Assembly: GCF_963921235.1 (NCBI RefSeq)
Contig: NC_086107.1
Coordinates: forward strand, 96,164,001 to 96,228,000
Source of the DNA: Mobula hypostoma
Lineage: Eukaryota
DNA: 64,000 nt
Direction: 5' to 3'
A program made the translations under genes and the position numbers. The notes under the pieces were generated by a model, which worked only from the letters and a program-made list of their open reading frames with translations, was not told the DNA's origin and ran no database searches. This document shows, in pieces, positions 1 through 64,000 of this stretch. How positions within the stretch are numbered: position 1 is the first letter of the stretch; each line of letters starts with the position of its first letter.

Positions 1-411
1 CGCAAGAAAAGGGCAGGGAACCACACAGCCTCTGGTACCCTGTCCTCTTCAGAGGAGGAAGGAGTTGGGGGAGGCCAGCAGCCCCAGCGGAAGAAGCGGC
101 TGGCAGAACAGGTGGAGAGGAGGAGAGAGGAGGGGGAAAGTCTGCTGGCCACCCCCCAAGTACAGGAGGCGGAGAGCAGCAGACACACCGAGCTCCGGGA
201 ATCCGGGAGCAGAGCCACGGTTGGCACCCAGCAGCCGGAAGGGGAAGCAGCCCAGGAAGCCAACAACCCCCCGGGCCCAGAACCAGAACGGCCACACACG
301 GAGGAGTACTACCAGCAGTACCTGAGCCCACAGGAGGTGGAAAACTTCACAAAGGCGGTGGGAATGAAGGCTCAGGATGGCAAGGATGAGGACGGAGTGC
401 AGCCAAAATAA
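1..411 (+). CDS. ORF1 C-terminal part (copy A, partial)
   Basis: Matches the 3' end of the complete ORF1 at 28946-30373 and ends ...DGVQPK*. Confidence 0.9.
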   Translation, partial: RKKRAGNHTASGTLSSSEEEGVGGGQQPQRKKRLAEQVERRREEGESLLATPQVQEAESSRHTELRESGSRATVGTQQPEGEAAQEANNPPGPEPERPHTEEYYQQYLSPQEVENFTKAVGMKAQDGKDEDGVQPK

Positions 412-421
412 GAGACCTACA

Positions 422-3400
422 ATGATGGCAGACCTTAAATTGGCGTGCTTGAATGTGCGAAGTTTGAAGAGTACTGGGCGATGCGTCAGCACGCTCCAGT
501 ACCTGGACACTGTAAAGACCGACGTGACCTTCCTCCAGGAGTGCGGACTACCACATCTCCGTAACTACCGGAGGTGGTCACGGTGGTGGAAAAAAGGTTT
601 GTCTGTGTGGTCGGGGGGCAACGATTGTCGCGCTTCCGGCCTGGGGATTCTGCTACGGGGAGGTAACTTCTCAATCACCCAAGTTAAAGAGGTGGTTGCG
701 GGGCGCCTCCTGGTAGCAGACGTCAAATACCGGGGCACTCCGCTCCGGCTGATCAACGTGTACGCCTCCCCCGTTCGGAGCGAGCGGCTGGCCGTCTTCG
801 AGCAGCTCCCACAGCTGCTGGTGACGTCCCAGCCGGTCGTTCTGGCCGGAGACTTCAACTGCACCATTGATGCGGCTGGAGGACCCGGCAGCGCCGACGG
901 CAGGCTGGACAGTACCTCCAGACTCCTGAGGGAAATAGTAAAGACGGCCAAGCTGCGCGACGCCTTTGGCACCCCCACAGGTGGAGCACAGCCGCAAGCC
1001 ACCTGGACACGGTCGGACGGCTCAGCCCGCTCCCGGATCGACTTCCTCTTCCTGTCAGAGCCCCTCACGGTCAGGTCCACCGACGTCACGCCGGTGTTCT
1101 TCTCTGACCACTGCCTTCTGAGAGCCACCTGTCGCTTACGGGAGGACCAGAAGGCAGGCAGGGGGACGTGGAAGCTGAATGTTAAGCTGCTGACCCCAGA
1201 GAACATCGAGGAACTAGAGAGGGAGTACACAGGTTGGAGAACCTTGAAAGCCTTCTTTGATTCCCCGGTTCACTGGTGGGAAGCCACCAAAGAGAACATT
1301 AAGAGGTTCTTCATCCGCAAGGGTATCCAGAAGGCAAGGCAGGAGCAGAGGGAACTGCGTAAACTCCAGACAGAGTTGCAGCAACTTCTCCTTCTGCAGT
1401 CGAAGGGGGTGGATGTCAGGGAGGAATTGCGAGAGGTGAAGGGCCGGCAAGCCCATAACCTCGCCGCCGAATCCTCCAAGATCATCTTCCGATCAAGGGT
1501 CCAAACCGTGGAGCAGGACGAGACGTGCTCACGCTTCTTCTTCCAAAAGGTGCACAGGGGGAGCTCTGTGATCCACAACCTTAGGGAAGAGGACGGCTCA
1601 GTCGCGTCCTCGCAGACCGACATACTGAGGATCTGCAAGTCCTTCTATGCCGGTCTGTACGACGAAAAGGCCACAGAATCCACAGCCTCCCGCAACTTCC
1701 TGTCGTCTATCACGCAGGTCTTAGACGGCGGCAAGCGGGAGAGTCTGGATCAGCCACTGACCCTGGACGAGCTGACAGGCTCCATCCGTTCCTTTGGGTC
1801 GGGTAAGACTCCCGGAAGCGACGGCTTACCGGCTGAGTTGTACTCGGCTCTGTGGAACTGGATAGGCCCAGACCTGCTGGAAGTGTACAATGCTATGCTT
1901 CTGGCCGGCAGGATGTCTGAGTCCATGAGGAAGGGCATCATCACCCTCATCTACAAGCAGAAGGGGGAAAGAGAGGACATTAGAAATTGGAGACCCATCT
2001 CTCTCCTGAATGTGGACTACAAGATCCTGTCCAAGGCTATCGCCAACAGGGTCAAGTCTGCTCTGGGACAGGTGATCCACCCAGACCAAACCTGTGCTGT
2101 ACCAGGCAGGAAGATCTCAGACAGCCTCGCGCTGCTGAGGGACACCATCGCCTACGTGCAGGACAGGAGGGTGGACGCCTGCCTGGTCAGCTTGGACCAG
2201 GAGAAAGCCTTCGACAGGATATCGCACACGTACATGGCGGACGTGCTCTCCAAAATGGGATTTGGGGAGGGAATCCGGAATTGGATCAGACTGCTCTACA
2301 CAGACATCCGTAGTGCAGTCCAGGTCAACGGGTGGGAAACAGACAGCTTCCCCATCAGGTCTGGAGTCAGGCAGGGCTGTCCCCTCTCCCCTGTCTTGTT
2401 TGTCTGCTGCATAGAACCCTTTGCGGAAGCCATTAGGAGGGATGAGGGCATAAGAGGGGTGACGCTGCCAGGCAGTGGAGGGACCCAAGTGAAAACCTCC
2501 CTGTACATGGACGACGTCACCGTCTTCTGCTCTGATCCGAGGTCAGTTCGCAGGTTGATTGGCACCTGCGAACAGTTCGAGCTGGCGTCGGGGGCCAGGG
2601 TCAACCGCACGAAGAGCGAAGCCATGCTCTTCGGCAACTGGCCCGACCGATCCAGCGTCCCCTTCAACGTCAGGTCTGACCACGTGAAGGTGTTGGGGAT
2701 ATGGTTCGGAGGGGCGGAGGCGTGCAACAAGAACTGGCAGGAGCGGACTGCCAAGGTGAAACAGAAACTGGGACTGTGGGGAGGGCGCTCCCTGTCGATA
2801 ACGGGCAAGAACCTGGTCATCAGGTGTGAGGTGCTCTCAGGGCTGCTGTACTTGGCGCAGGTCTGGCCCGTCCCCCGCTCCTACAGCTCGGAAATCACCC
2901 GGGCTGTCTTCAGATTCGTCTGGGGATCCAAGATGGAGCGGGTGGGACGGACCGCCATGCACAAGTCCCTGGACAACGGGGGCAAGAACGTCCCCAATGT
3001 CGCCCTCACCCTGATGGCCAGCTTCGTATGTGGCTGCATCAGGTTGTGTGTAGAGCCCAGGTATGTGGGCACCAAGTACCGCTACGTGCCCAGGTTCTAC
3101 TTGTCGCCCTGGCTACGAAGGATGGGTCTGGCCCCACTCCCGCGCAACGCCCCAGTCAGCTGGTCGTTGCCGGCATACCTGTCCTACGTAGCAAAGTTCT
3201 TCCAGGAGAACGCCTTTGACCACAGGGCCATCAGGCAGTGGTCGGCACGTAGTGTCCTGCAGGCACTGCAGGAGAAGGACGTGATGGACACAGTGGGGTG
3301 GTTCCCGGAGCAGACTGTCCAGTTCATCTGGCAAAATGCCTCATCGCCAGATCTAACCAACAGGCACCAAGACCTCGCCTGGCTGGCGGTGAGAGGGGCC

Positions 3401-3835
3401 CTCCCAGTCAGAGCCCTCCTGTACGCCCGGAACGTCGTCTCCGCACCCCATTGCCCACGGGAGGACTGCAGTGAGGAGGAGTCTGTGACCCACCTCTTTG
3501 CACACTGCCAGTTCGCAAAGAGGGTGTGGAGGAGGATGGATGGGCTAGTGTCACGGTTTATCCCCAGCAGCTGCGTAACAGAGGACTCTCTGATCTACGG
3601 GCTGTTCCCGGGGACACACACGGAGACCAACGTCCGGTGCTGCTGGCAGATCATCAACTCGGTGAAAGATGCTATTTGGTCGGCCCGTAACTTGATGATC
3701 TACCAGCACATGGAGATGTCCGTGGGAGAATGCTGCCGACTGGCACATTCTCGACTGCAGGAGTACGTGCTGAGGGACGCACTGAAACTTGGTGCAGCCA
3801 CCGCAAGGGCCCGGTGGGGAAGGACCACAGTATAG
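422..3835 (+). CDS. ORF2: APE endonuclease + reverse transcriptase + C-terminal CCHC (copy A)
   Basis: APE motifs LNVRS, FLQE, GDFN, SRIDF, SDH. RT motifs PGSDG, WRPISLLNVDYK, DQEKAFD, GVRQGCPLSP, YMDD. C-terminal CPREDC-x7-H-x4-C. The frame is open from 377; the likely start is ATGATG at 422/425, 10 nt after the ORF1 stop. Confidence 0.95.
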   Translation: MMADLKLACLNVRSLKSTGRCVSTLQYLDTVKTDVTFLQECGLPHLRNYRRWSRWWKKGLSVWSGGNDCRASGLGILLRGGNFSITQVKEVVAGRLLVADVKYRGTPLRLINVYASPVRSERLAVFEQLPQLLVTSQPVVLAGDFNCTIDAAGGPGSADGRLDSTSRLLREIVKTAKLRDAFGTPTGGAQPQATWTRSDGSARSRIDFLFLSEPLTVRSTDVTPVFFSDHCLLRATCRLREDQKAGRGTWKLNVKLLTPENIEELEREYTGWRTLKAFFDSPVHWWEATKENIKRFFIRKGIQKARQEQRELRKLQTELQQLLLLQSKGVDVREELREVKGRQAHNLAAESSKIIFRSRVQTVEQDETCSRFFFQKVHRGSSVIHNLREEDGSVASSQTDILRICKSFYAGLYDEKATESTASRNFLSSITQVLDGGKRESLDQPLTLDELTGSIRSFGSGKTPGSDGLPAELYSALWNWIGPDLLEVYNAMLLAGRMSESMRKGIITLIYKQKGEREDIRNWRPISLLNVDYKILSKAIANRVKSALGQVIHPDQTCAVPGRKISDSLALLRDTIAYVQDRRVDACLVSLDQEKAFDRISHTYMADVLSKMGFGEGIRNWIRLLYTDIRSAVQVNGWETDSFPIRSGVRQGCPLSPVLFVCCIEPFAEAIRRDEGIRGVTLPGSGGTQVKTSLYMDDVTVFCSDPRSVRRLIGTCEQFELASGARVNRTKSEAMLFGNWPDRSSVPFNVRSDHVKVLGIWFGGAEACNKNWQERTAKVKQKLGLWGGRSLSITGKNLVIRCEVLSGLLYLAQVWPVPRSYSSEITRAVFRFVWGSKMERVGRTAMHKSLDNGGKNVPNVALTLMASFVCGCIRLCVEPRYVGTKYRYVPRFYLSPWLRRMGLAPLPRNAPVSWSLPAYLSYVAKFFQENAFDHRAIRQWSARSVLQALQEKDVMDTVGWFPEQTVQFIWQNASSPDLTNRHQDLAWLAVRGALPVRALLYARNVVSAPHCPREDCSEEESVTHLFAHCQFAKRVWRRMDGLVSRFIPSSCVTEDSLIYGLFPGTHTETNVRCCWQIINSVKDAIWSARNLMIYQHMEMSVGECCRLAHSRLQEYVLRDALKLGAATARARWGRTTV

Positions 3836-4023
3836 GTTTCTCCACCCGTGGGAGTGGGAGGGGTCGGAGGGCGGGGAGTATACCCCTCAACAATGAAATG
3901 ATGTGGTATAAATACGGATATGTACTGTGTATAATGCAAACGTATGTAAAGGATGAAAAGTTATTGAATGGTTTATTGTATATATTTATTTTTGAATAAA
4001 GTATATTTTGAAATAAAAAAAAA

Positions 4024-4174
4024 ATCTGTTCTTATCAGTTTAATATCTGATACGTCCCTTATCTGGGGACCATATATTAAATTGATTTTTGGAACAGGGA
4101 GATGGAATAGGGGCTTGCTCCGTCCACTCCACGCATCGACCCGGTATTGCAGTGCCTCTGGGAACGGTGCACTC
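4024..4174 (+). pseudogene. RNU2: U2 snRNA 3' portion (nt 38-188), disrupted by copy A
   Basis: ATCTGTTCTTATCAGTTTAATATCTGATACG... with Sm site ATTTTTG, directly after the poly(A). Confidence 0.93.
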
Positions 4175-4690
4175 CCCTTCTGGGGAATTTCAAAGTAGCA
4201 AAGAAAAGGAAAACGACGAAAGCTCCATCAGGCACAGCAGCACAGACAAGCATGCACGCACATGGAGAGAGAGGAGAGAGCTAGCTGCTTGCTCTACACT
4301 TCTCCTGTGTCTGTGTCTGTCTGTCGATACAGCTCACTCACTCACTCACGCCATGGGCAGACAACTCAACAACAGCACGAGCATCATATATCTGGGCCAT
4401 TTGATCAAGCCATTTGATGGCTAAGATCAAGTGCACATCCAGGCTGCAACCAGATCAGGTGCTGCAGGCAAGGCAGCAACTTCATGAGAGATGCCCCTTG
4501 GCATTCATTCCTGAAGCAAACTGCTCAACCGGCACACTCATTCTGATGCCTGCTCACTCGGCAGCTGCCTGCACCAAGCACAGAAGCAGAGTGAAGCGGA
4601 GCGGGCCGAAAGGCCTTTTCTGTCCCGCCACGCTCGCTCCACTTCTCAGGCTCAGGCTTCTCAGCTGCTCCTTGAAGCCAACGGAGGACG

Positions 4691-6737: not shown

Positions 6738-6925
6738 ATCGCTTCTCGGCCTTTTGGCTAAGATCAAGTGTAGTATCTGTTCTTATCAGTTTAATATCTG
6801 ATACGTCCCTTATCTGGGGACCATATATTAAATTGATTTTTGGAACAGGGAGATGGAATAGGGGCTTGCTCCGTCCACTCCACGCATCGACCCGGTATTG
6901 CAGTGCCTCTGGGAACGGTGCACTC
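6738..6925 (+). ncRNA. RNU2: U2 spliceosomal snRNA (intact)
   Basis: Canonical ATCGCTTCTCGGCCTTTTGGCTAAGATCAAGTGTAGTATCTGTTCTTATCAG 5' end, GTAGTA branch-point recognition sequence, Sm site, loop IV TATTGCAG. The 3' end is approximate. Confidence 0.98.
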
Positions 6926-6937
6926 CCCTTCTGGGGA

Positions 6938-6950
6938 ATTTCAAAGTAGC
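6938..6950 (+). terminator. snRNA 3' box (Integrator processing signal), repeated after every U2 3' end
   Basis: ATTTCAAAGTAGC about 13 nt downstream of the mature end, similar to the GTTTN(0-3)AAARNNAGA consensus. Confidence 0.65.
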
Positions 6951-8542
6951 AAAGAAAAGGAAAACGACGAAAGCTCCATCAGGCACAGCAGCACAGACAA
7001 GCATGCACGCACATGGAGAGAGAGGAGAGAGCTAGCTGCTTGCTCTACACTTCTCCTGTGTCTGTGTCTGTCTGTCGATACAGCTCACTCACTCACTCAC
7101 GCCATGGGCAGACAACTCAACAACAGCACGAGCATCATATATCTGGGCCATTTGATCAAGCCATTTGATGGCTAAGATCAAGTGCACATCCAGGCTGCAA
7201 CCAGATCAGGTGCTGCAGGCAAGGCAGCAACTTCATGAGAGATGCCCCTTGGCATTCATTCCTGAAGCAAACTGCTCAACCGGCACACTCATTCTGATGC
7301 CTGCTCACTCGGCAGCTGCCTGCACCAAGCACAGAAGCAGAGTGAAGCGGAGCGGGCCGAAAGGCCTTTTCTGTCCCGCCACGCTCGCTCCACTTCTCAG
7401 GCTCAGGCTTCTCAGCTGCTCCTTGAAGCCAACGGAGGACGGGACGGACGGACGGACGGGCGGGCGAACGAACGAACGAACGAACGAACGAACGAACGAA
7501 CGAGGCGAATGAACGAATGATTTCACCAGCAGCCAGCCTGTCGGACAGGCAGGCTCGTTCAAGTGTGCCAGCAGCCAGGGCTCGTGGACGAGAGGAAGGA
7601 AGGGAGGCATCCGATGGAGCCCGGCCACAGAGCAACGGGGCCCGGTGCTGCATCCTCCCCGCCTGCACCAGACTGCCAAGACTGCTGCTCTCCTGCCCAG
7701 ACAGACAGACAGACAGACAGACCAGCTACAAGCATCACCACCTAGCCATAGCACCAGCAAAACTCTGCCTACCTGCCCTGGCCTGGCCTGGCCTCCTCTG
7801 CTCTGCCCGACCCGACCCGACTCGACTCACAAATCTCCATTGTGATGCGTCTGCCTGCCCCTGCCCCAGCCCCAAAGCCCCGCCCACCGTTCGAGGCAAG
7901 GCAGAGGCACAACCCCCCACTCAGACCTCCCCAATATACATTGGCAGTGCAGTGCATCTCCAGCCTCGCTCAAAATCACGTCCCAAACCCCAAAATCACT
8001 CAAACCTCTCATGCTTACACGTACCTACTCGGCGTCCAGCTTTGGCGCACGTCTCCACAAGTGCCACATCCATCCACGTGCCCCTGCTTCACGCACAGCA
8101 CAGCACTGTGCCTCCCTCCGGCAGGCATTTCGCCGATCCATTTCCTGTTTCACAACCAAGGCATAATCAGTACCCCTTTCCTTCCACAGCACAGCGCGCA
8201 CACGCGCCCGCCCACTCCGCCACCGAGCCATGCCGGCCAAAAACGCACCTGCACAGCAGTGGGGCACAGGGCCGCCGTCAGCCCGCCACACATTTCCCTC
8301 CTTCCCTCCTATTTCTACATCCGTGCACCCACCCCGCTGCAAAACCAGTCAGTCTGCTCAGGCGTCAGCACAGAGGCATAGTGAAGGGCCTCGGCCCTTC
8401 TCCCTTTACTGCCCTCTGTACATGTGACCAGAGCTTGGCAGATCCCTCAGCACTCCGTGTGCACGTGTGTCTGTGACTCTGTGTCTCTGTGAGATTGAGT
8501 GAGTGAGTGAGTGAGTCAGTGAGAGAGAGAGACAGACAGACA

Positions 8543-8591
<49 letters not shown>

Positions 8592-9490
8592 ACCCCCATC
8601 CACCCTGGTAAAAAAAAGGTGGTGGGGGAGCAGGGGAGAAGACACTGTGTCCAATCATAGCCTGTGCAGACGCAAAGTCTGCAGCTTCTGGAGATGAAAC
8701 AAACTCAATCCACTCAACAATTGTAATTGCACACACGTCAAAATAAAGGCACAGAGGTGTGAATGGCTGCACTTCAGCCTTCGGCTTGGAGAGCACACCC
8801 ATTGTTTCTCCTCAGGCACACCTGTAGCTGACATCCTCCTGTTCCCAAACTTGCCAGGAGGCTTTTCTGCCCGCGGACTTTGGCCACGTCCACAACCCTC
8901 GTACCGGTCTTGAGCGTTGCACGTGGCCTCTGCCTTTGTCGCCCGGCGCAGTCCCATCCGCTCGCTCCCTCCCGGAGAGGGCAGAGCCTCCGAAGGAGAC
9001 CGTTCAGCTGGATGGATGCGCCGGCCAGCTAGGGCGCGCAAAGCCGAGAGGCGCGCTCTCTTTGCCGAGTGCAGGGACGCCCTTGAAGGGCCCAGCGGCC
9101 TGCTCCCACTCCCCCTGCAGACTCTTGTGCAGACAGGACAGCGTGACCAGCCTCCCATGACCAGGAGAGCAGTGCAAGTTGAGCCAGCCTCTGAGACCGA
9201 CCTGGGAGCCGGCAGCCTTGACGTAGGCAGTGTGCCAGTGACGTAGGCGCCCATAAGTACGGCCCCACTCCCAGATGATTGGTGGATCACTAGCAGCTTT
9301 ACATAGCCTCTGACAACTTGCACTCATGACGGACCAGGTAGGCAACAGCTGTCCAGCACACCCACCCATCCCAGACAACCTAGGGGAGAGCTGCCAGCGG
9401 GCCAGGGCAGCAAGGTCTTTGCCAGGCCTCCTGCTTCAATCTAAACACCAGAGGCTAGGCAGGATGTAGCCGACTCAAGCGTATGCCTGC

Positions 9491-9678
9491 ATCGCTTCTC
9501 GGCCTTTTGGCTAAGATCAAGTGTAGTATCTGTTCTTATCAGTTTAATATCTGATACGTCCCTTATCTGGGGACCATATATTAAATTGATTTTTGGAACA
9601 GGGAGATGGAATAGGGGCTTGCTCCGTCCACTCCACGCATCGACCCGGTATTGCAGTGCCTCTGGGAACGGTGCACTC
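9491..9678 (+). ncRNA. RNU2: U2 snRNA (intact)
   Basis: Same sequence as 6738-6925. Confidence 0.98.
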
Positions 9679-11304
9679 CCCTTCTGGGGAATTTCAAAGT
9701 AGCAAAGAAAAGGAAAACGACGAAAGCTCCATCAGGCACAGCAGCACAGACAAGCATGCACGCACATGGAGAGAGAGGAGAGAGCTAGCTGCTTGCTCTA
9801 CACTTCTCCTGTGTCTGTGTCTGTCTGTCGATACAGCTCACTCACTCACTCACGCCATGGGCAGACAACTCAACAACAGCACGAGCATCATATATCTGGG
9901 CCATTTGATCAAGCCATTTGATGGCTAAGATCAAGTGCACATCCAGGCTGCAACCAGATCAGGTGCTGCAGGCAAGGCAGCAACTTCATGAGAGATGCCC
10001 CTTGGCATTCATTCCTGAAGCAAACTGCTCAACCGGCACACTCATTCTGATGCCTGCTCACTCGGCAGCTGCCTGCACCAAGCACAGAAGCAGAGTGAAG
10101 CGGAGCGGGCCGAAAGGCCTTTTCTGTCCCGCCACGCTCGCTCCACTTCTCAGGCTCAGGCTTCTCAGCTGCTCCTTGAAGCCAACGGAGGACGGGACGG
10201 ACGGACGGACGGGCGGGCGAACGAACGAACGAACGAACGAACGAACGAACGAACGAACGAGGCGAATGAACGAATGATTTCACCAGCAGCCAGCCTGTCG
10301 GACAGGCAGGCTCGTTCAAGTGTGCCAGCAGCCAGGGCTCGTGGACGAGAGGAAGGAAGGGAGGCATCCGATGGAGCCCGGCCACAGAGCAACGGGGCCC
10401 GGTGCTGCATCCTCCCCGCCTGCACCAGACTGCCAAGACTGCTGCTCTCCTGCCCAGACAGACAGACAGACAGACAGACCAGCTACAAGCATCACCACCT
10501 AGCCATAGCACCAGCAAAACTCTGCCTACCTGCCCTGGCCTGGCCTGGCCTCCTCTGCTCTGCCCGACCCGACCCGACTCGACTCACAAATCTCCATTGT
10601 GATGCGTCTGCCTGCCCCTGCCCCAGCCCCAAAGCCCCGCCCACCGTTCGAGGCAAGGCAGAGGCACAACCCCCCACTCAGACCTCCCCAATATACATTG
10701 GCAGTGCAGTGCATCTCCAGCCTCGCTCAAAATCACGTCCCAAACCCCAAAATCACTCAAACCTCTCATGCTTACACGTACCTACTCGGCGTCCAGCTTT
10801 GGCGCACGTCTCCACAAGTGCCACATCCATCCACGTGCCCCTGCTTCACGCACAGCACAGCACTGTGCCTCCCTCCGGCAGGCATTTCGCCGATCCATTT
10901 CCTGTTTCACAACCAAGGCATAATCAGTACCCCTTTCCTTCCACAGCACAGCGCGCACACGCGCCCGCCCACTCCGCCACCGAGCCATGCCGGCCAAAAA
11001 CGCACCTGCACAGCAGTGGGGCACAGGGCCGCCGTCAGCCCGCCACACATTTCCCTCCTTCCCTCCTATTTCTACATCCGTGCACCCACCCCGCTGCAAA
11101 ACCAGTCAGTCTGCTCAGGCGTCAGCACAGAGGCATAGTGAAGGGCCTCGGCCCTTTCTCCCTTTACTGCCCTCTGTACATGTGACCAGAGCTTGGCAGA
11201 TCCCTCAGCACTCCGTGTGCACGTGTGTCTGTGACTCTGTGTCTCTGTGAGATTGAGTGAGTGAGTGAGTGAGTCAGTGAGAGAGAGAGACAGACAGACA
11301 GACA

Positions 11305-11353
<49 letters not shown>

Positions 11354-14053: not shown

Positions 14054-14104
<51 letters not shown>

Positions 14105-16814: not shown

Positions 16815-16865
<51 letters not shown>

Positions 16866-46897: not shown

Positions 46898-47002
46898 ACC
46901 AGAAGGCGGAGGTGAAGAGTTCGCGCTGACGCAGGGGTGGATCCTAATGCTGATTGGCCTCCAATCTAACACCCCATACCAGCGACGACAGCAGTGAGGA
47001 AG

Positions 47003-48430: not shown

Positions 48431-48440
48431 GAGACCTACA

Positions 48441-51854: not shown

Positions 51855-52170
51855 GTTTCTCCACCCGTGGGAGTGGGAGGGGTCGGAGGGCGGGGAGTAT
51901 ACCCCTCAACAATGAAATGATGTGGTATAAATACGGATATGTACTGTGTATAATGCAAACGTATGTAAAGGATGAAAAGTTATTGAATGGTTTATTGTAT
52001 ATATTTATTTTTGAATAAAGTATATTTTGAAATAAAAAAAAAAAAAAAAAATCTGTTCTTATCAGACCAGAAGGCGGAGGTGAAGAGTTCGCGCTGACGC
52101 AGGGGTGGATCCTAATGCTGATTGGCCTCCAATCTAACACCCCATACCAGCGACGACAGCAGTGAGGAAG

Positions 52171-53598: not shown

Positions 53599-53608
53599 GA
53601 GACCTACA

Positions 53609-56600
53609 ATGATGGCAGACCTTAAATTGGCGTGCTTGAATGTGCGAAGTTTGAAGAGTACTGGGCGATGCGTCAGCACGCTCCAGTACCTGGACACTGT
53701 AAAGACCGACGTGACCTTCCTCCAGGAGTGCGGACTACCACATCTCCGTAACTACCGGAGGTGGTCACGGTGGTGGAAAAAAGGTTTGTCTGTGTGGTCG
53801 GGGGGCAACGATTGTCGCGCTTCCGGCCTGGGGATTCTGCTACGGGGAGGTAACTTCTCAATCACCCAAGTTAAAGAGGTGGTTGCGGGGCGCCTCCTGG
53901 TAGCAGACGTCAAATACCGGGGCACTCCGCTCCGGCTGATCAACGTGTACGCCTCCCCCGTTCGGAGCGAGCGGCTGGCCGTCTTCGAGCAGCTCCCACA
54001 GCTGCTGGTGACGTCCCAGCCGGTCGTTCTGGCCGGAGACTTCAACTGCACCATTGATGCGGCTGGAGGACCCGGCAGCGCCGACGGCAGGCTGGACAGT
54101 ACCTCCAGACTCCTGAGGGAAATAGTAAAGACGGCCAAGCTGCGCGACGCCTTTGGCACCCCCACAGGTGGAGCACAGCCGCAAGCCACCTGGACACGGT
54201 CGGACGGCTCAGCCTGCTCCCGGATCGACTTCCTCTTCCTGTCAGAGCCCCTCACGGTCAGGTCCACCGACGTCACGCCAGTGTTCTTCTCTGACCACTG
54301 CCTTCTGAGAGCCACCTGTCGCTTACGGGAGGACCAGAAGGCAGGCAGGGGGACGTGGAAGCTGAATGTTAAGCTGCTGACCCCAGAGAACATCGAGGAA
54401 CTAGAGAGGGAGTACACAGGTTGGAGAACCTTGAAAGCCTTCTTTGATTCCCCGGTTCACTGGTGGGAAGCCACCAAAGAGAACATTAAGAGGTTCTTCA
54501 TCCGCAAGGGTATCCAGAAGGCAAGGCAGGAGCAGAGGGAACTGCGTAAACTCCAGACAGAGTTGCAGCAACTTCTCCTTCTGCAGTCGAAGGGGGTGGA
54601 TGTCAGGGAGGAATTGCGAGAGGTGAAGGGCCGGCAAGCCCATAACCTCGCCGCCGAATCCTCCAAGATCATCTTCCGATCAAGGGTCCAAACCGTGGAG
54701 CAGGACGAGACGTGCTCACGCTTCTTCTTCCAAAAGGTGCACAGGGGGAGCTCTGTGATCCACAACCTTAAGGAAGAGGACGGCTCAGTCGCGTCCTCGC
54801 AGACCGACATACTGAGGATCTGCAAGTCCTTCTATGCCGGTCTGTACGACGAAAAGGCCACAGAATCCACAGCCTCCCGCAACTTCCTGTCGTCTATCAC
54901 GCAGGTCTTAGACGGCGGCAAGCGGGAGAGTCTGGATCAGCCACTGACCCTGGACGAGCTGACAGGCTCCATCCGTTCCTTTGGGTCGGGTAAGACTCCC
55001 GGAAGCGACGGCTTACCGGCTGAGTTGTACTCGGCTCTGTGGAACTGGATAGGCCCAGACCTGCTGGAAGTGTACAATGCTATGCTTCTGGCCGGCAGTA
55101 TGTCTGAGTCCATGAGGAAGGGCATCATCACCCTCATCTACAAGCAGAAGGGGGAAAGAGAGGACATTAGAAATTGGAGACCCATCTCTCTCCTGAATGT
55201 GGACTACAAGATCCTGTCCAAGGCTATCGCCAACAGGGTCAAGTCTGCTCTGGGACAGGTGATCCACCCAGACCAAACCTGTGCTGTACCAGGCAGGAAG
55301 ATCTCAGACAGCCTCGCGCTGCTGAGGGACACCATCGCCTACGTGCAGGACAGGAGGGTGGACGCCTGCCTGGTCAGCTTGGACCAGGAGAAAGCCTTCG
55401 ACAGGATATCGCACACGTACATGGCGGACGTGCTCTCCAAAATGGGATTTGGGGAGGGAATCCGGAATTGGATCAGACTGCTCTACACAGACATCCGTAG
55501 TGCAGTCCAGGTCAACGGGTGGGAAACAGACAGCTTCCCCATCAGGTCTGGAGTCAGGCAGGGCTGTCCCCTCTCCCCTGTCTTGTTTGTCTGCTGCATA
55601 GAACCCTTTGCGGAAGCCATTAGGAGGGATGAGGGCATAAGAGGGGTGACGCTGCCAGGCAGTGGAGGGACCCAAGTGAAAACCTCCCTGTACATGGACG
55701 ACGTCACCGTCTTCTGCTCTGATCCGAGGTCAGTTCGCAGGTTGATTGGCACCTGCGAACAGTTCGAGCTAGCGTCGGGGGCCAGGGTCAACCGCACGAA
55801 GAGCGAAGCCATGCTCTTCGGCAACTGGCCCGACCGATCCAGCGTCCCCTTCAACATCAGGTCTGACCACGTGAAGGTGTTGGGGATATGGTTCGGAGGG
55901 GCGGAGGCGTGCAACAAGAACTGGCAGGAGCGGACTGCCAAGGTGAAACAGAAACTGGGACTGTGGGGAGGGCGCTCCCTGTCGATAACGGGCAAGAACC
56001 TGGTCATCAGGTGTGAGGTGCTCTCAGGGCTGCTGTACTTGGCGCAGGTCTGGCCCGTCCCCCGCTCCTACAGCTCGGAAATCACCCGGGCTGTCTTCAG
56101 ATTCGTCTGGGGATCCAAGATGGAGCGGGTGGGACGGACCGCCATGCACAAGTCCCTGGACAACGGGGGCAAGAACGTCCCCAATGTCGCCCTCACCCTG
56201 ATGGCCAGCTTCGTATGTGGCTGCATCAGGTTGTGTGTAGAGCCCAGGTATGTGGGCACCAAGTACCGCTACGTGCCCAGGTTCTACTTGTCGCCCTGGC
56301 TACGAAGGATGGGTCTGGCCCCACTCCCGCGCAACGCCCCAGTCAGCTGGTCGTTGCCGGCATACCTGTCCTACGTAGCAAAGTTCTTCCAGGAGAACGC
56401 CTTTGACCACAGGGCCATCAGGCAGTGGTCGGCACGTAGTGTCCTGCAGGCACTGCAGGAGAAGGACGTGATGGACACAGTGGGGTGGTTCCCGGAGCAG
56501 ACTGTCCAGTTCATCTGGCAAAATGCCTCATCGCCAGATCTAACCAACAGGCACCAAGACCTCGCCTGGCTGGCGGTGAGAGGGGCCCTCCCAGTCAGAG

Positions 56601-57022
56601 CCCTCCTGTACGCCCGGAACGTCGTCTCCGCACCCCATTGCCCACGGGAGGACTGCAGTGAGGAGGAGTCTGTGACCCACCTCTTTGCACACTGCCAGTT
56701 CGCAAAGAGGGTGTGGAGGAGGATGGATGGGCTAGTGTCACGGTTTATCCCCAGCAGCTGCGTAACAGAGGACTCTCTGATCTACGGGCTGTTCCCGGGG
56801 ACACACACGGAGACCAACGTCCGGTGCTGCTGGCAGATCATCAACTCGGTGAAAGATGCTATTTGGTCGGCCCGTAACTTGATGATCTACCAGCACATGG
56901 AGATGTCCGTGGGAGAATGCTGCCGACTGGCACATTCTCGACTGCAGGAGTACGTGCTGAGGGACGCACTGAAACTTGGTGCAGCCACCGCAAGGGCCCG
57001 GTGGGGAAGGACCACAGTATAG
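53609..57022 (+). CDS. ORF2 (copy F)
   Basis: Intact APE-RT. Confidence 0.95.
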   Translation: MMADLKLACLNVRSLKSTGRCVSTLQYLDTVKTDVTFLQECGLPHLRNYRRWSRWWKKGLSVWSGGNDCRASGLGILLRGGNFSITQVKEVVAGRLLVADVKYRGTPLRLINVYASPVRSERLAVFEQLPQLLVTSQPVVLAGDFNCTIDAAGGPGSADGRLDSTSRLLREIVKTAKLRDAFGTPTGGAQPQATWTRSDGSACSRIDFLFLSEPLTVRSTDVTPVFFSDHCLLRATCRLREDQKAGRGTWKLNVKLLTPENIEELEREYTGWRTLKAFFDSPVHWWEATKENIKRFFIRKGIQKARQEQRELRKLQTELQQLLLLQSKGVDVREELREVKGRQAHNLAAESSKIIFRSRVQTVEQDETCSRFFFQKVHRGSSVIHNLKEEDGSVASSQTDILRICKSFYAGLYDEKATESTASRNFLSSITQVLDGGKRESLDQPLTLDELTGSIRSFGSGKTPGSDGLPAELYSALWNWIGPDLLEVYNAMLLAGSMSESMRKGIITLIYKQKGEREDIRNWRPISLLNVDYKILSKAIANRVKSALGQVIHPDQTCAVPGRKISDSLALLRDTIAYVQDRRVDACLVSLDQEKAFDRISHTYMADVLSKMGFGEGIRNWIRLLYTDIRSAVQVNGWETDSFPIRSGVRQGCPLSPVLFVCCIEPFAEAIRRDEGIRGVTLPGSGGTQVKTSLYMDDVTVFCSDPRSVRRLIGTCEQFELASGARVNRTKSEAMLFGNWPDRSSVPFNIRSDHVKVLGIWFGGAEACNKNWQERTAKVKQKLGLWGGRSLSITGKNLVIRCEVLSGLLYLAQVWPVPRSYSSEITRAVFRFVWGSKMERVGRTAMHKSLDNGGKNVPNVALTLMASFVCGCIRLCVEPRYVGTKYRYVPRFYLSPWLRRMGLAPLPRNAPVSWSLPAYLSYVAKFFQENAFDHRAIRQWSARSVLQALQEKDVMDTVGWFPEQTVQFIWQNASSPDLTNRHQDLAWLAVRGALPVRALLYARNVVSAPHCPREDCSEEESVTHLFAHCQFAKRVWRRMDGLVSRFIPSSCVTEDSLIYGLFPGTHTETNVRCCWQIINSVKDAIWSARNLMIYQHMEMSVGECCRLAHSRLQEYVLRDALKLGAATARARWGRTTV

Positions 57023-57212
57023 GTTTCTCCACCCGTGGGAGTGGGAGGGGTCGGAGGGCGGGGAGTATACCCCTCAACAATGAAATGATGTGGTATAAAT
57101 ACGGATATGTACTGTGTATAATGCAAACGTATGTAAAGGATGAAAAGTTATTGAATGGTTTATTGTATATATTTATTTTTGAATAAAGTATATTTTGAAA
57201 TTAAAAAAAAAA

Positions 57213-57363
57213 ATCTGTTTTTATCAGTTTAATATCTGATACGTCCCTTATCTGGGGACCATATATTAAATTGATTTTTGGAACAGGGAGATGGAATAGG
57301 GGCTTGCTCCGTCCACTCCACGCATCGACCCGGTATTGCAGTGCCTCTGGGAACGGTGCACTC
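57213..57363 (+). pseudogene. RNU2: U2 snRNA 3' portion (nt 38-188, with C45T)
   Basis: Follows the poly(A) of copy F. Confidence 0.93.
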
Positions 57364-59986: not shown

Positions 59987-60091
59987 ACCAGAAGGCGGAG
60001 GTGAAGAGTTCGCGCTGACGCAGGGGTGGATCCTAATGCTGATTGGCCTCCAATCTAACACCCCATACCAGCGACGACAGCAGTGAGGAAG

Positions 60092-61519
60092 ATGGCAGCA
60101 GCGAGCAGTGCATCGGCTCGAGGCCAAGGTATCAAGAACACTGTCAGGCTGACAGTGCGAGACCGGAACGGGGGCACCGGCTTCACCCGAGAGACCTTCA
60201 TCCGGAAGGTCTTGATGGAATGCTGCGGATTTACGCCTGACGACATCTACTGCGTCCAGGACTTTGCAGGTTTTTTCGACGTGACTTTCCGGCAGGCTGC
60301 AGGGTGGCAGAAGCTGTACCAGCAGCTTCAGCTGAAGGGGACAGAGGCGCCGCTGTCGCTGTTGAAAGCACAGGCCCTCTTTGCCACGGCTACCCAGCAG
60401 GAACGGACAATCACGGTGCACATGTTCAACCCGCACGTGCCATTGGTAGATGTCCTTACATTCCTCGCTCGGTATGTGGAGAGCGTAGGAACGCCAGCAG
60501 ACGTGAAGGACGGACTGGGAATCTGGACCAGCAAACGGCAGGTCAAGGTGAAGCTGAGGTTGGACTCCAACGGCGGCGTCATCCACCCCCCCTCCGTCTT
60601 CGCCATCGGAGGGAACCGAGGGTACACGGTGTACGCGGGGCAACCCAGGGTGTGCCGAAACTGCGGCAAGGCAGGGCACATCGCAGCCCAGTGCAGGGTG
60701 GTGATGTGCAAGAACTGCAAAACTGAAGGCCACCTGACCAAAGACTGCACGCAGGCCAAGTCCTGCAACCTTTGTGGACAAGACGGCCACCTGTACAGAG
60801 CCTGCCCGAGGCGTGGGGGCACCTACGCACAGGCAACCAGGGGTGGTGCTGGTCCTGAAAGGGCCCAGGCAGTTTCGGACGCCCCTGCCAGCACTGCCGA
60901 AGAGGCACCCGACAGGGCGGACGATGAGACCAGGGAGGAAGGGGCAAGCACCCCGAGACCTGCCACCCCACTGCAGACCCTCCAGGACCAAGCAAATGAC
61001 GAGCAGGAGTCCATGGAGGAAGGGACAGCTGAGGTGGAAACGGAATGGAAGGTCGTGAAACGGAAAAAGACCCAAAAGGCGGCGGCCAAGCGACAGAAGG
61101 CGGAGCAACGCAAGAAAAGGGCAGGGAACCACACAGCCTCTGGTACCCTGTCCTCTTCAGAGGAGGAAGGAGTTGGGGGAGGCCAGCAGCCCCAGCGGAA
61201 GAAGCGGCTGGCAGAACAGGTGGAGAGGAGGAGAGAGGAGGGGGAAAGTCTGCTGGCCACCCCCCAAGTACAGGAGGCGGAGAGCAGCAGACACACCGAG
61301 CTCCGGGAATCCGGGAGCAGAGCCACGGTTGGCACCCAGCAGCCGGAAGGGGAAGCAGCCCAGGAAGCCAACAACCCCCCGGGCCCAGAACCAGAACGGC
61401 CACACACGGAGGAGTACTACCAGCAGTACCTGAGCCCACAGGAGGTGGAAAACTTCACAAAGGCGGTGGGAATGAAGGCTCAGGATGGCAAGGATGAGGA
61501 CGGAGTGCAGCCAAAATAA
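60092..61519 (+). CDS. ORF1 (copy G)
   Basis: Intact, 3 CCHC knuckles. Confidence 0.95.
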   Translation: MAAASSASARGQGIKNTVRLTVRDRNGGTGFTRETFIRKVLMECCGFTPDDIYCVQDFAGFFDVTFRQAAGWQKLYQQLQLKGTEAPLSLLKAQALFATATQQERTITVHMFNPHVPLVDVLTFLARYVESVGTPADVKDGLGIWTSKRQVKVKLRLDSNGGVIHPPSVFAIGGNRGYTVYAGQPRVCRNCGKAGHIAAQCRVVMCKNCKTEGHLTKDCTQAKSCNLCGQDGHLYRACPRRGGTYAQATRGGAGPERAQAVSDAPASTAEEAPDRADDETREEGASTPRPATPLQTLQDQANDEQESMEEGTAEVETEWKVVKRKKTQKAAAKRQKAEQRKKRAGNHTASGTLSSSEEEGVGGGQQPQRKKRLAEQVERRREEGESLLATPQVQEAESSRHTELRESGSRATVGTQQPEGEAAQEANNPPGPEPERPHTEEYYQQYLSPQEVENFTKAVGMKAQDGKDEDGVQPK

Positions 61520-61529
61520 GAGACCTACA

Positions 61530-64000
61530 ATGATGGCAGACCTTAAATTGGCGTGCTTGAATGTGCGAAGTTTGAAGAGTACTGGGCGATGCGTCAGCAC
61601 GCTCCAGTACCTGGACACTGTAAAGACCGACGTGACCTTCCTCCAGGAGTGCGGACTACCACATCTCCGTAACTACCGGAGGTGGTCACGGTGGTGGAAA
61701 AAAGGTTTGTCTGTGTGGTCGGGGGGCAACGATTGTCGCGCTTCCGGCCTGGGGATTCTGCTACGGGGAGGTAACTTCTCAATCACCCAAGTTAAAGAGG
61801 TGGTTGCGGGGCGCCTCCTGGTAGCAGACGTCAAATACCGGGGCACTCCGCTCCGGCTGATCAACGTGTACGCCTCCCCCGTTCGGAGCGAGCGGCTGGC
61901 CGTCTTCGAGCAGCTCCCACAGCTGCTGGTGACGTCCCAGCCGGTCGTTCTGGCCGGAGACTTCAACTGCACCATTGATGCGGCTGGAGGACCCGGCAGC
62001 GCCGACGGCAGGCTGGACAGTACCTCCAGACTCCTGAGGGAAATAGTAAAGACGGCCAAGCTGCGCGACGCCTTTGGCACCCCCACAGGTGGAGCACAGC
62101 CGCAAGCCACCTGGACACGGTCGGACGGCTCAGCCCGCTCCCGGATCGACTTCCTCTTCCTGTCAGAGCCCCTCACGGTCAGGTCCACCGACGTCACGCC
62201 GGTGTTCTTCTCTGACCACTGCCTTCTGAGAGCCACCTGTCGCTTACGGGAGGACCAGAAGGCAGGCAGGGGGACGTGGAAGCTGAATGTTAAGCTGCTG
62301 ACCCCAGAGAACATCGAGGAACTAGAGAGGGAGTACACAGGTTGGAGAACCTTGAAAGCCTTCTTTGATTCCCCGGTTCACTGGTGGGAAGCCACCAAAG
62401 AGAACATTAAGAGGTTCTTCATCCGCAAGGGTATCCAGAAGGCAAGGCAGGAGCAGAGGGAACTGCGTAAACTCCAGACAGAGTTGCAGCAACTTCTCCT
62501 TCTGCAGTCGAAGGGGGTGGATGTCAGGGAGGAATTGCGAGAGGTGAAGGGCCGGCAAGCCCATAACCTCGCCGCCGAATCCTCCAAGATCATCTTCCGA
62601 TCAAGGGTCCAAACCGTGGAGCAGGACGAGACGTGCTCACGCTTCTTCTTCCAAAAGGTGCACAGGGGGAGCTCTGTGATCCACAACCTTAAGGAAGAGG
62701 ACGGCTCAGTCGCGTCCTCGCAGACCGACATACTGAGGATCTGCAAGTCCTTCTATGCCGGTCTGTACGACGAAAAGGCCACAGAATCCACAGCCTCCCG
62801 CAACTTCCTGTCGTCTATCACGCAGGTCTTAGACGGCGGCAAGCGGGAGAGTCTGGATCAGCCACTGACCCTGGACGAGCTGACAGGCTCCATCCGTTCC
62901 TTTGGGTCGGGTAAGACTCCCGGAAGCGACGGCTTACCGGCTGAGTTGTACTCGGCTCTGTGGAACTGGATAGGCCCAGACCTGCTGGAAGTGTACAATG
63001 CTATGCTTCTGGCCGGCAGGATGTCTGAGTCCATGAGGAAGGGCATCATCACCCTCATCTACAAGCAGAAGGGGGAAAGAGAGGACATTAGAAATTGGAG
63101 ACCCATCTCTCTCCTGAATGTGGACTACAAGATCCTGTCCAAGGCTATCGCCAACAGGGTCAAGTCTGCTCTGGGACAGGTGATCCACCCAGACCAAACC
63201 TGTGCTGTACCAGGCAGGAAGATCTCAGACAGCCTCGCGCTGCTGAGGGACACCATCGCCTACGTGCAGGACAGGAGGGTGGACGCCTGCCTGGTCAGCT
63301 TGGACCAGGAGAGAGCCTTCGACAGGATATCGCACACGTACATGGCGGACGTGCTCTCCAAAATGGGATTTGGGGAGGGAATCCGGAATTGGATCAGACT
63401 GCTCTACACAGACATCCGTAGTGCAGTCCAGGTCAACGGGTGGGAAACAGACAGCTTCCCCATCAGGTCTGGAGTCAGGCAGGGCTGTCCCCTCTCCCCT
63501 GTCTTGTTTGTCTGCTGCATAGAACCCTTTGCGGAAGCCATTAGGAGGGATGAGGGCATAAGAGGGGTGACGCTGCCAGGCAGTGGAGGGACCCAAGTGA
63601 AAACCTCCCTGTACATGGACGACGTCACCGTCTTCTGCTCTGATCCGAGGTCAGTTCGCAGGTTGATTGGCACCTGCGAACAGTTCGAGCTAGCGTCGGG
63701 GGCCAGGGTCAACCGCACGAAGAGCGAAGCCATGCTCTTCGGCAACTGGCCCGACCGATCCAGCGTCCCCTTCAACATCAGGTCTGACCACGTGAAGGTG
63801 TTGGGGATATGGTTCGGAGGGGCGGAGGCGTGCAACAAGAACTGGCAGGAGCGGACTGCCAAGGTGAAACAGAAACTGGGACTGTGGGGAGGGCGCTCCC
63901 TGTCGATAACGGGCAAGAACCTGGTCATCAGGTGTGAGGTGCTCTCAGGGCTGCTGTACTTGGCGCAGGTCTGGCCCGTCCCCCGCTCCTACAGCTCGGA
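61530..64000 (+). CDS. ORF2 (copy G, partial at window end)
   Basis: Matches the other ORF2 copies through the YMDD region; no stop seen before the window end. Confidence 0.9.
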   Translation, partial: MMADLKLACLNVRSLKSTGRCVSTLQYLDTVKTDVTFLQECGLPHLRNYRRWSRWWKKGLSVWSGGNDCRASGLGILLRGGNFSITQVKEVVAGRLLVADVKYRGTPLRLINVYASPVRSERLAVFEQLPQLLVTSQPVVLAGDFNCTIDAAGGPGSADGRLDSTSRLLREIVKTAKLRDAFGTPTGGAQPQATWTRSDGSARSRIDFLFLSEPLTVRSTDVTPVFFSDHCLLRATCRLREDQKAGRGTWKLNVKLLTPENIEELEREYTGWRTLKAFFDSPVHWWEATKENIKRFFIRKGIQKARQEQRELRKLQTELQQLLLLQSKGVDVREELREVKGRQAHNLAAESSKIIFRSRVQTVEQDETCSRFFFQKVHRGSSVIHNLKEEDGSVASSQTDILRICKSFYAGLYDEKATESTASRNFLSSITQVLDGGKRESLDQPLTLDELTGSIRSFGSGKTPGSDGLPAELYSALWNWIGPDLLEVYNAMLLAGRMSESMRKGIITLIYKQKGEREDIRNWRPISLLNVDYKILSKAIANRVKSALGQVIHPDQTCAVPGRKISDSLALLRDTIAYVQDRRVDACLVSLDQERAFDRISHTYMADVLSKMGFGEGIRNWIRLLYTDIRSAVQVNGWETDSFPIRSGVRQGCPLSPVLFVCCIEPFAEAIRRDEGIRGVTLPGSGGTQVKTSLYMDDVTVFCSDPRSVRRLIGTCEQFELASGARVNRTKSEAMLFGNWPDRSSVPFNIRSDHVKVLGIWFGGAEACNKNWQERTAKVKQKLGLWGGRSLSITGKNLVIRCEVLSGLLYLAQVWPVPRSYSS

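Follow-up and report, generated by a model that had tools for sequence, protein, structure and literature searches.

A Keno-type LINE in the U2 snRNA genes of Mobula hypostoma, with dispersed copies that carry a U2 leader

The tandem U2 snRNA genes in a 64,000-nt stretch of the Mobula hypostoma genome (hereafter, the window) house seven copies of a young LINE, and further copies of the family are scattered outside U2, where the full-length ones begin with a U2-derived leader. We consider it likely that this is a Keno-type LINE whose sources reside in U2 genes, that it borrows the U2 promoter to produce a U2-led mRNA, and that it combines homing to a single U2 site with promiscuous integration elsewhere.

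Element copies in the U2 array

Rfam identified eight complete U2 genes in the window (RF00004, 189 bits each; starts at 6738, 9491, 12253, 15004, 17765, 20516, 23271 and 26028), arranged in repeat units of ~2.75 kb, as well as a further eight partial or interrupted matches that represent five interrupted genes. This agrees with a sequence-only reading of the same DNA, which had counted 5 of 13 U2 genes as occupied by seven near-identical sense copies of one element at one U2 position. A BLAST search of the window with copy 2, the reference for all our comparisons, indeed returned one LINE of 5.16 kb in seven copies, each on the + strand in the U2 sense, 99.67-100% identical to the query and joined to U2 at the same nucleotide (Table 1). 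The 400 bp upstream of the U2 units, intact as compared with occupied, had no mismatches in 11/12 cases and six mismatches in one, and TCTGTTCTTATCAG (U2 nt 39-52) occurred 17 times in the window as compared with none in 100 shuffles.

Table 1. Positions of element copies, U2 segments and coding features in the window
Feature	Position	Strand	Remarks
Copy 1	1..4024	+	5' 1,122 nt beyond window edge; ORF2 377-3835 open
U2 3' part (nt 39-191) after copy 1	4025..4177	+	14-bp duplicate at 4025-4038
Eight intact U2 snRNA genes	6738..26218	+	Empty target sites; Rfam RF00004
U2 nt 1-52 upstream of copy 2, proposed transcribed leader	28789..28840	+	
Copy 2	28841..33998	+	Full length, 5,158 bp
ORF1, 475 aa	28946..30373	+	Two ZCCHC3-type RNA-binding domains and CCHC zinc knuckles
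ORF2, 1152 aa	30339..33797	+	APE endonuclease aa 40-245; reverse transcriptase aa 535-776; zf-RVT aa 979-1051
AATAAA signal	33957..33962	+	15 nt upstream of A-run 33978-33998; in 6/6 visible copy ends
14-nt U2 nt 39-52 separating tandem copies 2 and 3	33999..34012	+	
Copy 3	34012..36229	+	5'-truncated, begins at element nt 2937; tandem after copy 2; U2 3' part 36230-36382
U2 nt 1-52, same layout as at copy 2	38933-38984, 46846-46897, 59935-59986	+	
Copy 4	38985..44138	+	Full length; U2 3' part 44139-44291
Copy 5	46898..52051	+	Full length; upstream partner of tandem pair
Copy 6	52066..57213	+	Full length; downstream partner of tandem pair; 9 private substitutions
Copy 7	59987..64000	+	3' end beyond window edge

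These copies are not identical duplicates. Each has private substitutions, ORF2 of copy 4 reaches 1154 aa through a 6-bp in-frame expansion, and the occupied units show four architectures: a solo copy, a full-length copy with one truncated at nt 2937, two full-length copies, and a full-length copy with one that is missing its first 21 nt. Past the window, copy 7 continues, and behind it lies one more tandem copy, whose sequence begins with element nt 22 (locus L042). The differing structures, the private SNPs and the differing A-runs bear out the earlier suggestion of several separate insertion events.

At the 5' junction of every full-length window copy, U2 nt 52 is followed directly by ACCAGAAGG, and at the 3' junction of every visible copy the poly(A) is followed by U2 nt 39-52. 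The duplication is (A)TCTGTTCTTATCAG, with A38 indistinguishable from the A-run, and the A-runs at the six visible copy ends measure 10, 21, 18, 12, 18 and 11 nt. All six visible window 3' junctions, ~37 nt into U2, have the 3' flank TCTGTTCTTATCAGTTTAAT; the U2 3' part after copy 6 (57214-57366) has a C>T change in its duplicate (57214-57227). Genome-wide, we counted 11 exact poly(A)-plus-U2 junctions and 17 junctions of tail plus duplication. The 3' junction was invariant across U2-resident copies, and the 5' junctions of truncated U2-resident copies fell at U2 nt 28, 29, 35, 36, 40, 45 and 51/52. Of the nucleotide-precise integration proposed earlier, the exact bottom-strand nick therefore stands, but the 5' junctions of truncated copies do not share that precision. 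Among truncated copies on other contigs, six distinct truncation points were seen, and a five-copy head-to-tail block elsewhere in the genome has four identical junctions.

ORF1 and ORF2 overlap by 35 nt in different frames. ORF1 matched Pfam families PF23057 (7.6e-15), PF23058 (6.1e-26) and PF00098 (3.5e-10), and ORF2, whose reverse transcriptase contains the YMDD motif, matched PF03372 (4.6e-14), PF00078 (2.1e-38) and PF13966 (5.6e-10). Each of the four complete window copies has both ORFs open, and the partial copies are open over the part present. The junctions and ORF calls thus agree with the common duplication, differing A-runs and open reading frames described before, and the near-identity of the copies with their intact ORFs upholds the description of the family as very young. 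The nearest database proteins, which are unnamed or amphibian Tx1-like, are just 46-48% identical, and an automatically named Danio 'transposon TX1' is 39% identical. Ka/Ks values of 0.09-0.44 for both ORFs, from comparison of an array copy with seven older copies, and an older subfamily (92-93% identity) that likewise sits in a U2 unit with true U2 upstream flank, point to a long-lived lineage.

Two other candidate features in the array were set aside. Spacer ORFs of 434 and 319 aa match no Pfam family, vary in length between units and were taken as chance ORFs in GC-rich DNA, and an apparent U2 mimicry by the element's 5' UTR (an Rfam full-model match at 28789-28920) consists of U2 nt 1-52 plus a weakly aligned UTR hairpin.

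Dispersed copies and their U2 leader

The 21-nt tail of the element, which may also occur in non-autonomous derivatives and so gives a rough count, was found 1,140 times genome-wide, as compared with 0 occurrences of its reversed control. The U2 duplication followed only 17 of these tails, a ratio that overstates the off-target rate per event because copies in the array may disappear or be homogenised more quickly than those outside it. All full-length copies retrieved from other contigs (20/20) were at non-U2 sites, and the systematically sampled tails all belonged to the family (20/20, 85-99.8% identity), with none in U2 (0/20); the non-array copies inspected thus lay outside U2 in 40/40 cases. 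Copy counts from the genome searches are rough, as 40 of 161 and 40 of 3,307 candidates were scored; among the 40 scored of 3,307, 3'-end matches of at least 99% identity comprised 12 U2-resident copies and 20 elsewhere. Strict site specificity had been proposed for this family, with a census inside versus outside U2 named beforehand as the test that could refute it, and the many non-U2 copies do refute it. Several dispersed copies are no older than those in the array (L001-L003, 99.7%; L035 and L037, 99.6-99.8%), and both ORFs are open in only 2/20 dispersed full-length ones.

In each of the 20 dispersed full-length copies, U2 sequence ending at nt 52 is fused to the element's first nucleotides, exactly as in the array. 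The leader starts at U2 nt 1 in six copies, at nt 2 in four, at nt 3 in two and at nt 13 in two, and at nt 6, 8, 19, 22, 29 and 35 in one copy each. None of the 20 had U2 upstream flank ahead of the leader, the U2 3' half downstream, or any part of U2 nt 53-191 in the head. An inverted, twin-priming-type copy (L001) likewise ends at U2 nt 1.

Exact duplications of at least 7 nt surrounded 15/32 dispersed copies (3.4% of shuffled pairs); the duplications were 7-16 bp long and started with A or AA, and 5' truncation was frequent. A further 79 loci were covered in 116-bp stretches and for 3' flanks only. The off-target 3' flanks revealed a faint echo of the U2 site: they started with TCT in 13/116 cases (4.2 expected; p = 3e-4, with 3-4 of these flanks sharing one repeat and perhaps not independent) and with TCTGT in four (0.44 expected; p = 1e-3), and their mean identity to U2 nt 39-52 was 4.44 as compared with 3.36 at an internal offset. 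About 90% of the off-target flanks had no likeness to the U2 site. The echo points weakly to the element's own endonuclease. In 4/116 flanks one repeat was shared together with a variant tail. This apparent hot spot outside U2 (L081, L083, L097, L111) more probably reflects, given the shared tail variants, one insertion that was amplified along with its host repeat.

A proposed route through the U2 promoter

In the mechanism we propose, reconstructed from DNA copies alone, the external U2 promoter would direct Pol II to start at U2 +1 and to read into the element, and the RNA would be polyadenylated at the element's own signal, giving an mRNA with a 52-nt U2 leader. The element's proteins would cut the U2 bottom strand at one invariant position, between nt 37 and 38, and priming on the poly(A) would come from the T that faces A38. 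A full-length cDNA would end in the complement of the leader and could pair with the 5' half of the target U2 gene; this would explain why the junction of U2 nt 52 with the element is invariant and the leader is not doubled; cDNAs that stop early would be joined at variable U2 positions. The same machinery would also use ordinary L1-like target-primed reverse transcription to insert at numerous sites elsewhere, and the leader would be kept there because no homologous partner is present. A kept leader would thus mark the dispersed copies as descendants of U2-resident sources. These copies would decay because they lack a U2 promoter, and the lineage would persist only via residency in U2; taken together, the pattern suggests that source copies exist only inside U2 genes.

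A more far-reaching possibility, which we regard as unlikely, is that the 52-nt leader serves as a homology arm or guide that pairs with the U2 gene for site choice and templates the seamless 5' junction. If so, specificity would be partly RNA-encoded and in principle reprogrammable, and loss of pairing would lead to the promiscuous mode. In tandem stacks, the more recent copies seem to have inserted into the upstream remnant, which keeps U2 nt 1-43/52 without the rest of U2; this fits guidance by the leader and recognition by protein equally well.

Other explanations can be weighed against read-in from the U2 gene. A strictly U2-specific, nucleotide-precise family with essentially no copies elsewhere would account for the one exact bottom-strand site used by the seven window copies and by at least 17 junctions genome-wide, which, given ~40 U2 sites in a 3.48-Gb genome, exceeds by an enormous factor what random insertion would give. 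Such a family is nevertheless very improbable, since only 17 of 1,140 tails lie in U2, all 40 copies inspected elsewhere are outside it with duplications of their own, some of the off-target copies match the array copies in youth (99.6-99.8%), and non-U2 copies outnumber U2-resident ones (20 vs 12) among scored 3' ends of at least 99% identity. It is conceivable, though doubtful, that the endonuclease is strictly U2-specific and that another poly(A)-using LINE generated the dispersed copies in trans, as processed-pseudogene-like retrocopies of the polyadenylated, U2-led mRNA. The generic, L1-like character of the dispersed sites (duplications of 7-16 bp starting with A or AA, 5' truncation, one twin-priming-type inversion) and the ~90% of flanks unlike the U2 site are in line with this; LINE proteins, however, show cis-preference, as known from L1, so that more than 1,000 copies are far above expectation for retrocopies of a single mRNA, and the TCT and TCTGT enrichment in off-target flanks also speaks against it.

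The U2 head might instead have been added when the reverse transcriptase switched templates onto mature U2 snRNA, with no read-in from the U2 gene, as argued for the U2 head of Tx1-11_Crp in PMC4494074. Under template switching, heads should begin close to the 3' terminus of the snRNA, or at it, and be fused to varied positions of the element, but in 20/20 cases the head ends at U2 nt 52 and joins element nt 1, which is the 5' junction of the U2-resident copies, and U2 nt 53-191 never appears; we find this origin hardly credible here. The array itself could owe most of its copies to one or two insertions that were spread by unequal crossing-over or gene conversion, or to assembly duplications. 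The array is highly homogenised, with identical 400-bp flanks, the identical junctions of the five-copy block elsewhere point to amplification by recombination, and slippage can also alter A-runs; the four architectures of the occupied units, the private substitutions and the six truncation points on other contigs nonetheless make such spreading distinctly unlikely as the main source.

Relation to known elements

Keno elements are U2 snRNA gene-specific non-LTR retrotransposons of the Tx1 clade (Kojima & Fujiwara 2004, as cited in PMC4640811, PMC4494074 and PMC6136364). These papers describe an APE endonuclease and a U2 site common with Utopia (PMC4640811), and quote the Keno target as TCTGTTCTTATCAGTTTAAT (PMC6136364). 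The element resembles Keno in its APE endonuclease and reverse transcriptase, its sense orientation in U2, its identical 3' flank and its poly(A) tail. Because it has APE, reverse transcriptase and zf-RVT domains and a 3' target equal to the published Keno target, the element is, by its predicted domains and target site, a Keno-type LINE of the Tx1/L1 group, a known kind, as the sequence-only reading had recognised. It differs from Keno in that insertion is not exclusive to U2 (17/1,140 tails) and in that its dispersed full-length copies keep a head from U2 nt 1-52. The literature searched, in the parts available, contained no Keno description of mostly non-U2 copies or of U2 heads, and the 2004 original may describe them. 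One more Keno family is of little interest in itself; what is useful is the set of dispersed copies across the genome, a natural record of how the element is transcribed.

The closest parallel to these heads is found in crocodilians, where Tx1-Mar/Tx1-11_Crp and SINEU are Tx1 elements that cluster with Keno and insert outside U2, according to PMC4494074. The same paper ascribes the U1/U2 heads of Tx1-Mar/SINEU to template switching and describes the elements as ancient (85-87% identity to consensus) and as preferring a Mariner transposon (PMC4494074). Our family shares with Tx1-11_Crp a U2-derived 5' head on copies outside U2 (here in 20/20 dispersed full-length copies). It differs from the crocodilian elements in that the head ends at the Keno 5' junction and that young U2 sources coexist with dispersed copies, and these two features thus point to read-in from a U2 gene. 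Read-in would also explain in a simple way how crocodilian Tx1 and SINEU acquired their U2 heads, earlier ascribed to template switching.

In arthropod rDNA, R2 and R1 occupy a multicopy RNA gene and are co-transcribed from the host promoter, on which they depend, and upstream target sequence in their transcripts may aid 5' joining. R2, which has one ORF and a restriction-like endonuclease, relies on Pol I for its transcription and on a self-cleaving ribozyme for its release. Our family shares with R2/R1 the residence in a multicopy RNA gene and, presumably, the dependence on a host gene promoter, whereas it differs from R2 in being APE-type with two ORFs, in its putative use of a Pol II snRNA promoter, in keeping the leader and in its massive off-target integration. 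For the 5' junction, Rfam at gathering thresholds reported only U2 in the window and no self-cleaving ribozyme among those it describes. At the DNA level, the copies are evidence that a LINE of the APE type can subsist on a Pol II snRNA promoter that it borrows, much as R2 does on rDNA transcription, and they show that a home site used with single-nucleotide precision does not preclude heavy integration elsewhere. The earlier proposal of a clean, R2-like insertion tool is weakened by the off-target copies and the variable 5' joining: the element makes a weak candidate where precise insertion is wanted, and this calls for caution in proposals for targeted gene insertion with such elements.

Utopia elements are RLE-type, with a PD-(D/E)xK restriction-like endonuclease, and sometimes occur in tandem in U2 (PMC4640811). 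The U2 site and the tandem occurrence are shared with our family, whereas the element has two ORFs and an N-terminal APE instead of the single ORF and C-terminal PD-(D/E)xK domain of Utopia, and Pfam found no RLE family in the ORF products.

ORF2 aa 22-881 aligned with human L1 ORF2p (E 1.5e-83), and homology to LINE-1 extends over the endonuclease and the reverse transcriptase; the dispersed copies also resemble LINE-1 in their 5' truncation, A-starting duplications and twin-priming-type inversion. Human LINE-1, by contrast, is driven by an internal promoter and lacks a home site. ORF1 of our family differs from that of human LINE-1 and is of the ZCCHC3 RNA-binding domain plus CCHC type.

A Keno-type LINE within the U2 array

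The window (G000:C45:96164001-96228000) lies within an array of tandemly repeated U2 snRNA genes whose repeat unit measures ~2.75 kb. Rfam recognized eight of these genes as complete (189 bits each) and matched the halves of five interrupted ones with eight lower-scoring hits. A BLAST search of the window with copy 2 of the element (window 28841-33998) returned seven copies, all on the plus strand and 99.67-100% identical; besides four complete copies, these include one whose truncated 5' end lies at element nt 2937 and two that the window ends cut short. The full-length window copies all join U2 nt 52 to ACCAGAAGG, and every visible 3' end runs through an A-run (10, 21, 18, 12, 18 and 11 nt, with U2 A38 inseparable from it) into TCTGTTCTTATCAG, which is U2 nt 39-52. 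This 14-mer occurs 17 times in the window and never in shuffles. Wherever a copy includes ORF1 (475 aa) or ORF2 (1152 or 1154 aa), the frame is open. The sequence-only reading, which had described seven near-identical copies with the same U2 junction and 14-15 bp duplication, differing A-runs and open ORFs, was correct in every detail checked.

ORF1 encodes two ZCCHC3-type RNA-binding domains and CCHC knuckles, and ORF2 an APE endonuclease, a reverse transcriptase and a zf-RVT domain. ORF2 matches human L1 ORF2p across both endonuclease and reverse transcriptase (E 1.5e-83), and its match to R2 proteins is confined to the reverse transcriptase. The closest among 5.8 billion proteins, either unnamed or from Ranitomeya and Pleurodeles, show 46-48% identity; a zebrafish protein automatically named 'transposon TX1' is 39% identical. 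The Keno target in U2 quoted in PMC6136364 equals the 3' target of the element letter for letter, and PMC4640811 describes Keno as APE-type, with the RLE-type Utopia using the same U2 site, so the element works like Keno and occupies its place. Judged by target site and endonuclease type it is a Keno-type LINE, a known kind, as had been proposed; its sequence is that of a real, young and probably active family. Its departure from the textbook description is well documented: this element combines a home site with massive off-target integration and with a U2 leader, which appears to mark the transcription start.

Locations of features and loci
Feature	Location	Strand	Description
L041, L042	flanking window		an additional full-length copy, and a tandem copy without the first 21 nt
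L043-L048	C116, C18, C122, C160, C184		second U2 gene type, six examples, all with 5'-truncated copies
L051, L052	G000:C45:96254808-96276493	minus	U2 unit with true U2 upstream flank and five head-to-tail copies
L001	G000:C18:131459500-131466700		dispersed copy, twin-priming-type structure
CTT-repeat tract in ORF2, copy 4	window 41636-41655		6 bp longer than in other copies, in frame, giving 1154 aa
3' duplicate of copy 6	window 57214-57227		reads TCTGTTTTTATCAG; C>T within U2 nt 39-52 of the interrupted gene
27-bp 3' UTR indel	element nt 5025-5030, window about 33865-33870		splits older subfamily (97-98.5% identity) from array copies
Hairpin GATTGG-CCT-CCAATC	window 28895-28909		perfect, within 105-nt 5' UTR
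Long U2-spacer ORFs	window 4417-5721, 7517-8476, equivalents in other units	plus	434, 319, 303, 288 aa, in GC-rich spacer
Spacer indel variant	window 15194-15500		directly downstream of U2 in one array unit

Integration at U2 and elsewhere

With the initial 1 kb of the element as query, a genome search gave 40 scored matches among 161 candidates, 25 of them on contigs other than that of the window (C45). The 20 of these that were fetched (the last five listed were left out, three of them without a 5' end) are all full-length copies at non-U2 sites, each with U2 sequence ending at nt 52 joined to the element start and none with the U2 3' half beside it. Many dispersed copies have target duplications of their own, e.g., ccataagtcatgg (L003) and gagtggagtgacatt (L007), and exact duplications of at least 7 nt flank 15/32 dispersed copies, as compared with 3.4% of shuffled pairings. 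The 21-nt element tail (at most one mismatch) occurs 1,140 times genome-wide, against 0 for the reversed control, and only 17 of these tails have the exact U2 14-mer 5-35 nt further on, a count that misses a few mutated junctions such as that at window 57214. Sampling roughly every fifth of the first 100 listed places yielded 20 loci, all of them family members (85-99.8% identity, mostly 5'-truncated) and 0/20 in U2. The claim that the family is strictly site-specific is refuted by what the claim itself had named as decisive, many copies outside U2: 17 of 1,140 tails lie at U2, and all 20 fetched and all 20 sampled loci lie elsewhere.

The youth of copies does not restore specificity. Five dispersed copies (L001-L003, L035 and L037) share 99.6-99.8% identity with the array copy, and 3' ends of at least 99% identity were U2-resident in 12 cases and elsewhere in 20 (40 scored of 3,307 candidates). 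U2 is still an extreme insertion hot spot, with ~24 intact and ~20 occupied sites in the 3.48 Gb genome and at least 17 precisely placed insertions. In L001, inverted U2 nt 1-52 and element nt 1-4675 are joined to direct element nt 4673-5146; the two segments overlap by 3 nt where they meet. Four tail matches on C1 and C2 (L081, L083, L097 and L111) have a common variant tail and downstream sequence, tc[tc]catattcttaattgcc..., and look like a single insertion that multiplied along with the repeat hosting it, or like a composite non-autonomous element.

U2-resident copies also occur in a second U2 gene type, whose upstream flank differs and whose 3' half shares 94-98% identity with the array U2; on C122, four truncated copies are stacked in tandem, separated by U2 remnants of 5-9 nt. 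Two outlying C45 units carry tandem copies; in one (L051/L052), five copies of a 92-93% subfamily form a block that has the 14-nt U2 word between copies and lacks the U2 3' half after nt 47. Four of its junctions are identical, suggesting that recombination amplified the copies.

The 3' junction falls at the same nucleotide in all other fetched U2-resident copies, and the 5' junction of the truncated ones at U2 nt 28, 29, 35, 36, 40 or 45, leaving small deletions or short duplications. The bottom-strand nick is thus precise, and second-strand joining imprecise. The constant join at nt 52 in full-length copies would be best explained if the cDNA, through the leader complement in which it ends, annealed to the U2 5' half; a comparable 5'-joining step has been proposed for R1 and R2. 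The upstream copy is nearer the modal sequence in 4/5 tandem pairs (c5/c6, c7/L042b, L049a/b and the C122 stack; c2/c3 is a tie), which suggests, from small numbers, that later insertions go into the remnant on the upstream side, which keeps only U2 nt 1-43/52.

The U2 leader and the source of dispersed copies

Leaders of the 20 dispersed full-length copies begin at U2 nt 1 (six), 2 (four), 3 (two), 13 (two) or, once each, 6, 8, 19, 22, 29 and 35; all end at nt 52, and array sequence preceding U2 was found in none. Such a pattern is what template RNAs would leave if they were initiated at the transcription start of an occupied U2 gene and continued into the element. For the U2-headed crocodilian Tx1-11_Crp, PMC4494074 gives template switching onto U2 snRNA as the explanation, which does not fit a head that here invariably runs to U2 nt 52 and is fused to element nt 1. 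As for initiation at the occupied U2 gene, the 400 bp upstream are identical between occupied and intact units in 11/12 units and AATAAA lies 15 nt ahead of the A-run at each copy end, making a polyadenylated, leader-bearing mRNA plausible. Dispersed copies should be transcriptionally dead, because snRNA genes have no known internal promoter according to PMC4494074; both ORFs are retained in 2/20 of them versus 4/4 complete window copies.

Dispersed copies might alternatively be mobilised in trans rather than by the element's own endonuclease. Their 3' flanks (n = 116) weakly echo the U2 site, with 13 TCT prefixes against 4.2 expected (p = 3e-4), three or four of which may be one amplified locus, and four TCTGT prefixes against 0.44 (p = 1e-3). 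The excess favours the element's own endonuclease over trans mobilisation, though only modestly.

Within a limited literature collection, no account was found of dispersed Keno copies tagged with a leader, or of Keno transcription driven by the U2 promoter. A cloned U2 fragment is reported to match the Repbase entry Keno-1_SSa (PMC6136364), which hints that Repbase consensus sequences may already contain U2 sequence.

History of the family and the array

In both ORFs, comparison of the array copy with seven older copies gives Ka/Ks of 0.09-0.44, so the lineage has been selected for function through at least 7% divergence. The window copies differ by private substitutions and the 6-bp in-frame expansion, and occupied units show four architectures. 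Several separate insertion events in the array are likely, and recombination within it surely also moves copies. The older subfamily defined by the 27-bp indel is both dispersed and U2-resident.

The long spacer ORFs vary in length between units, no Pfam family was found for them, and they are probably not genes. The 201 positional mismatches of the spacer variant to other units are due to a shift, and the Rfam U2 model aligns weakly across the 5' UTR hairpin. About half of the element's sampled words are present in sequencing runs X5-X8 of a second organism (B); contigs from these runs are ~95-99% alike, so a relative has a related family, and one contig extends 2.1 kb upstream of the element start.
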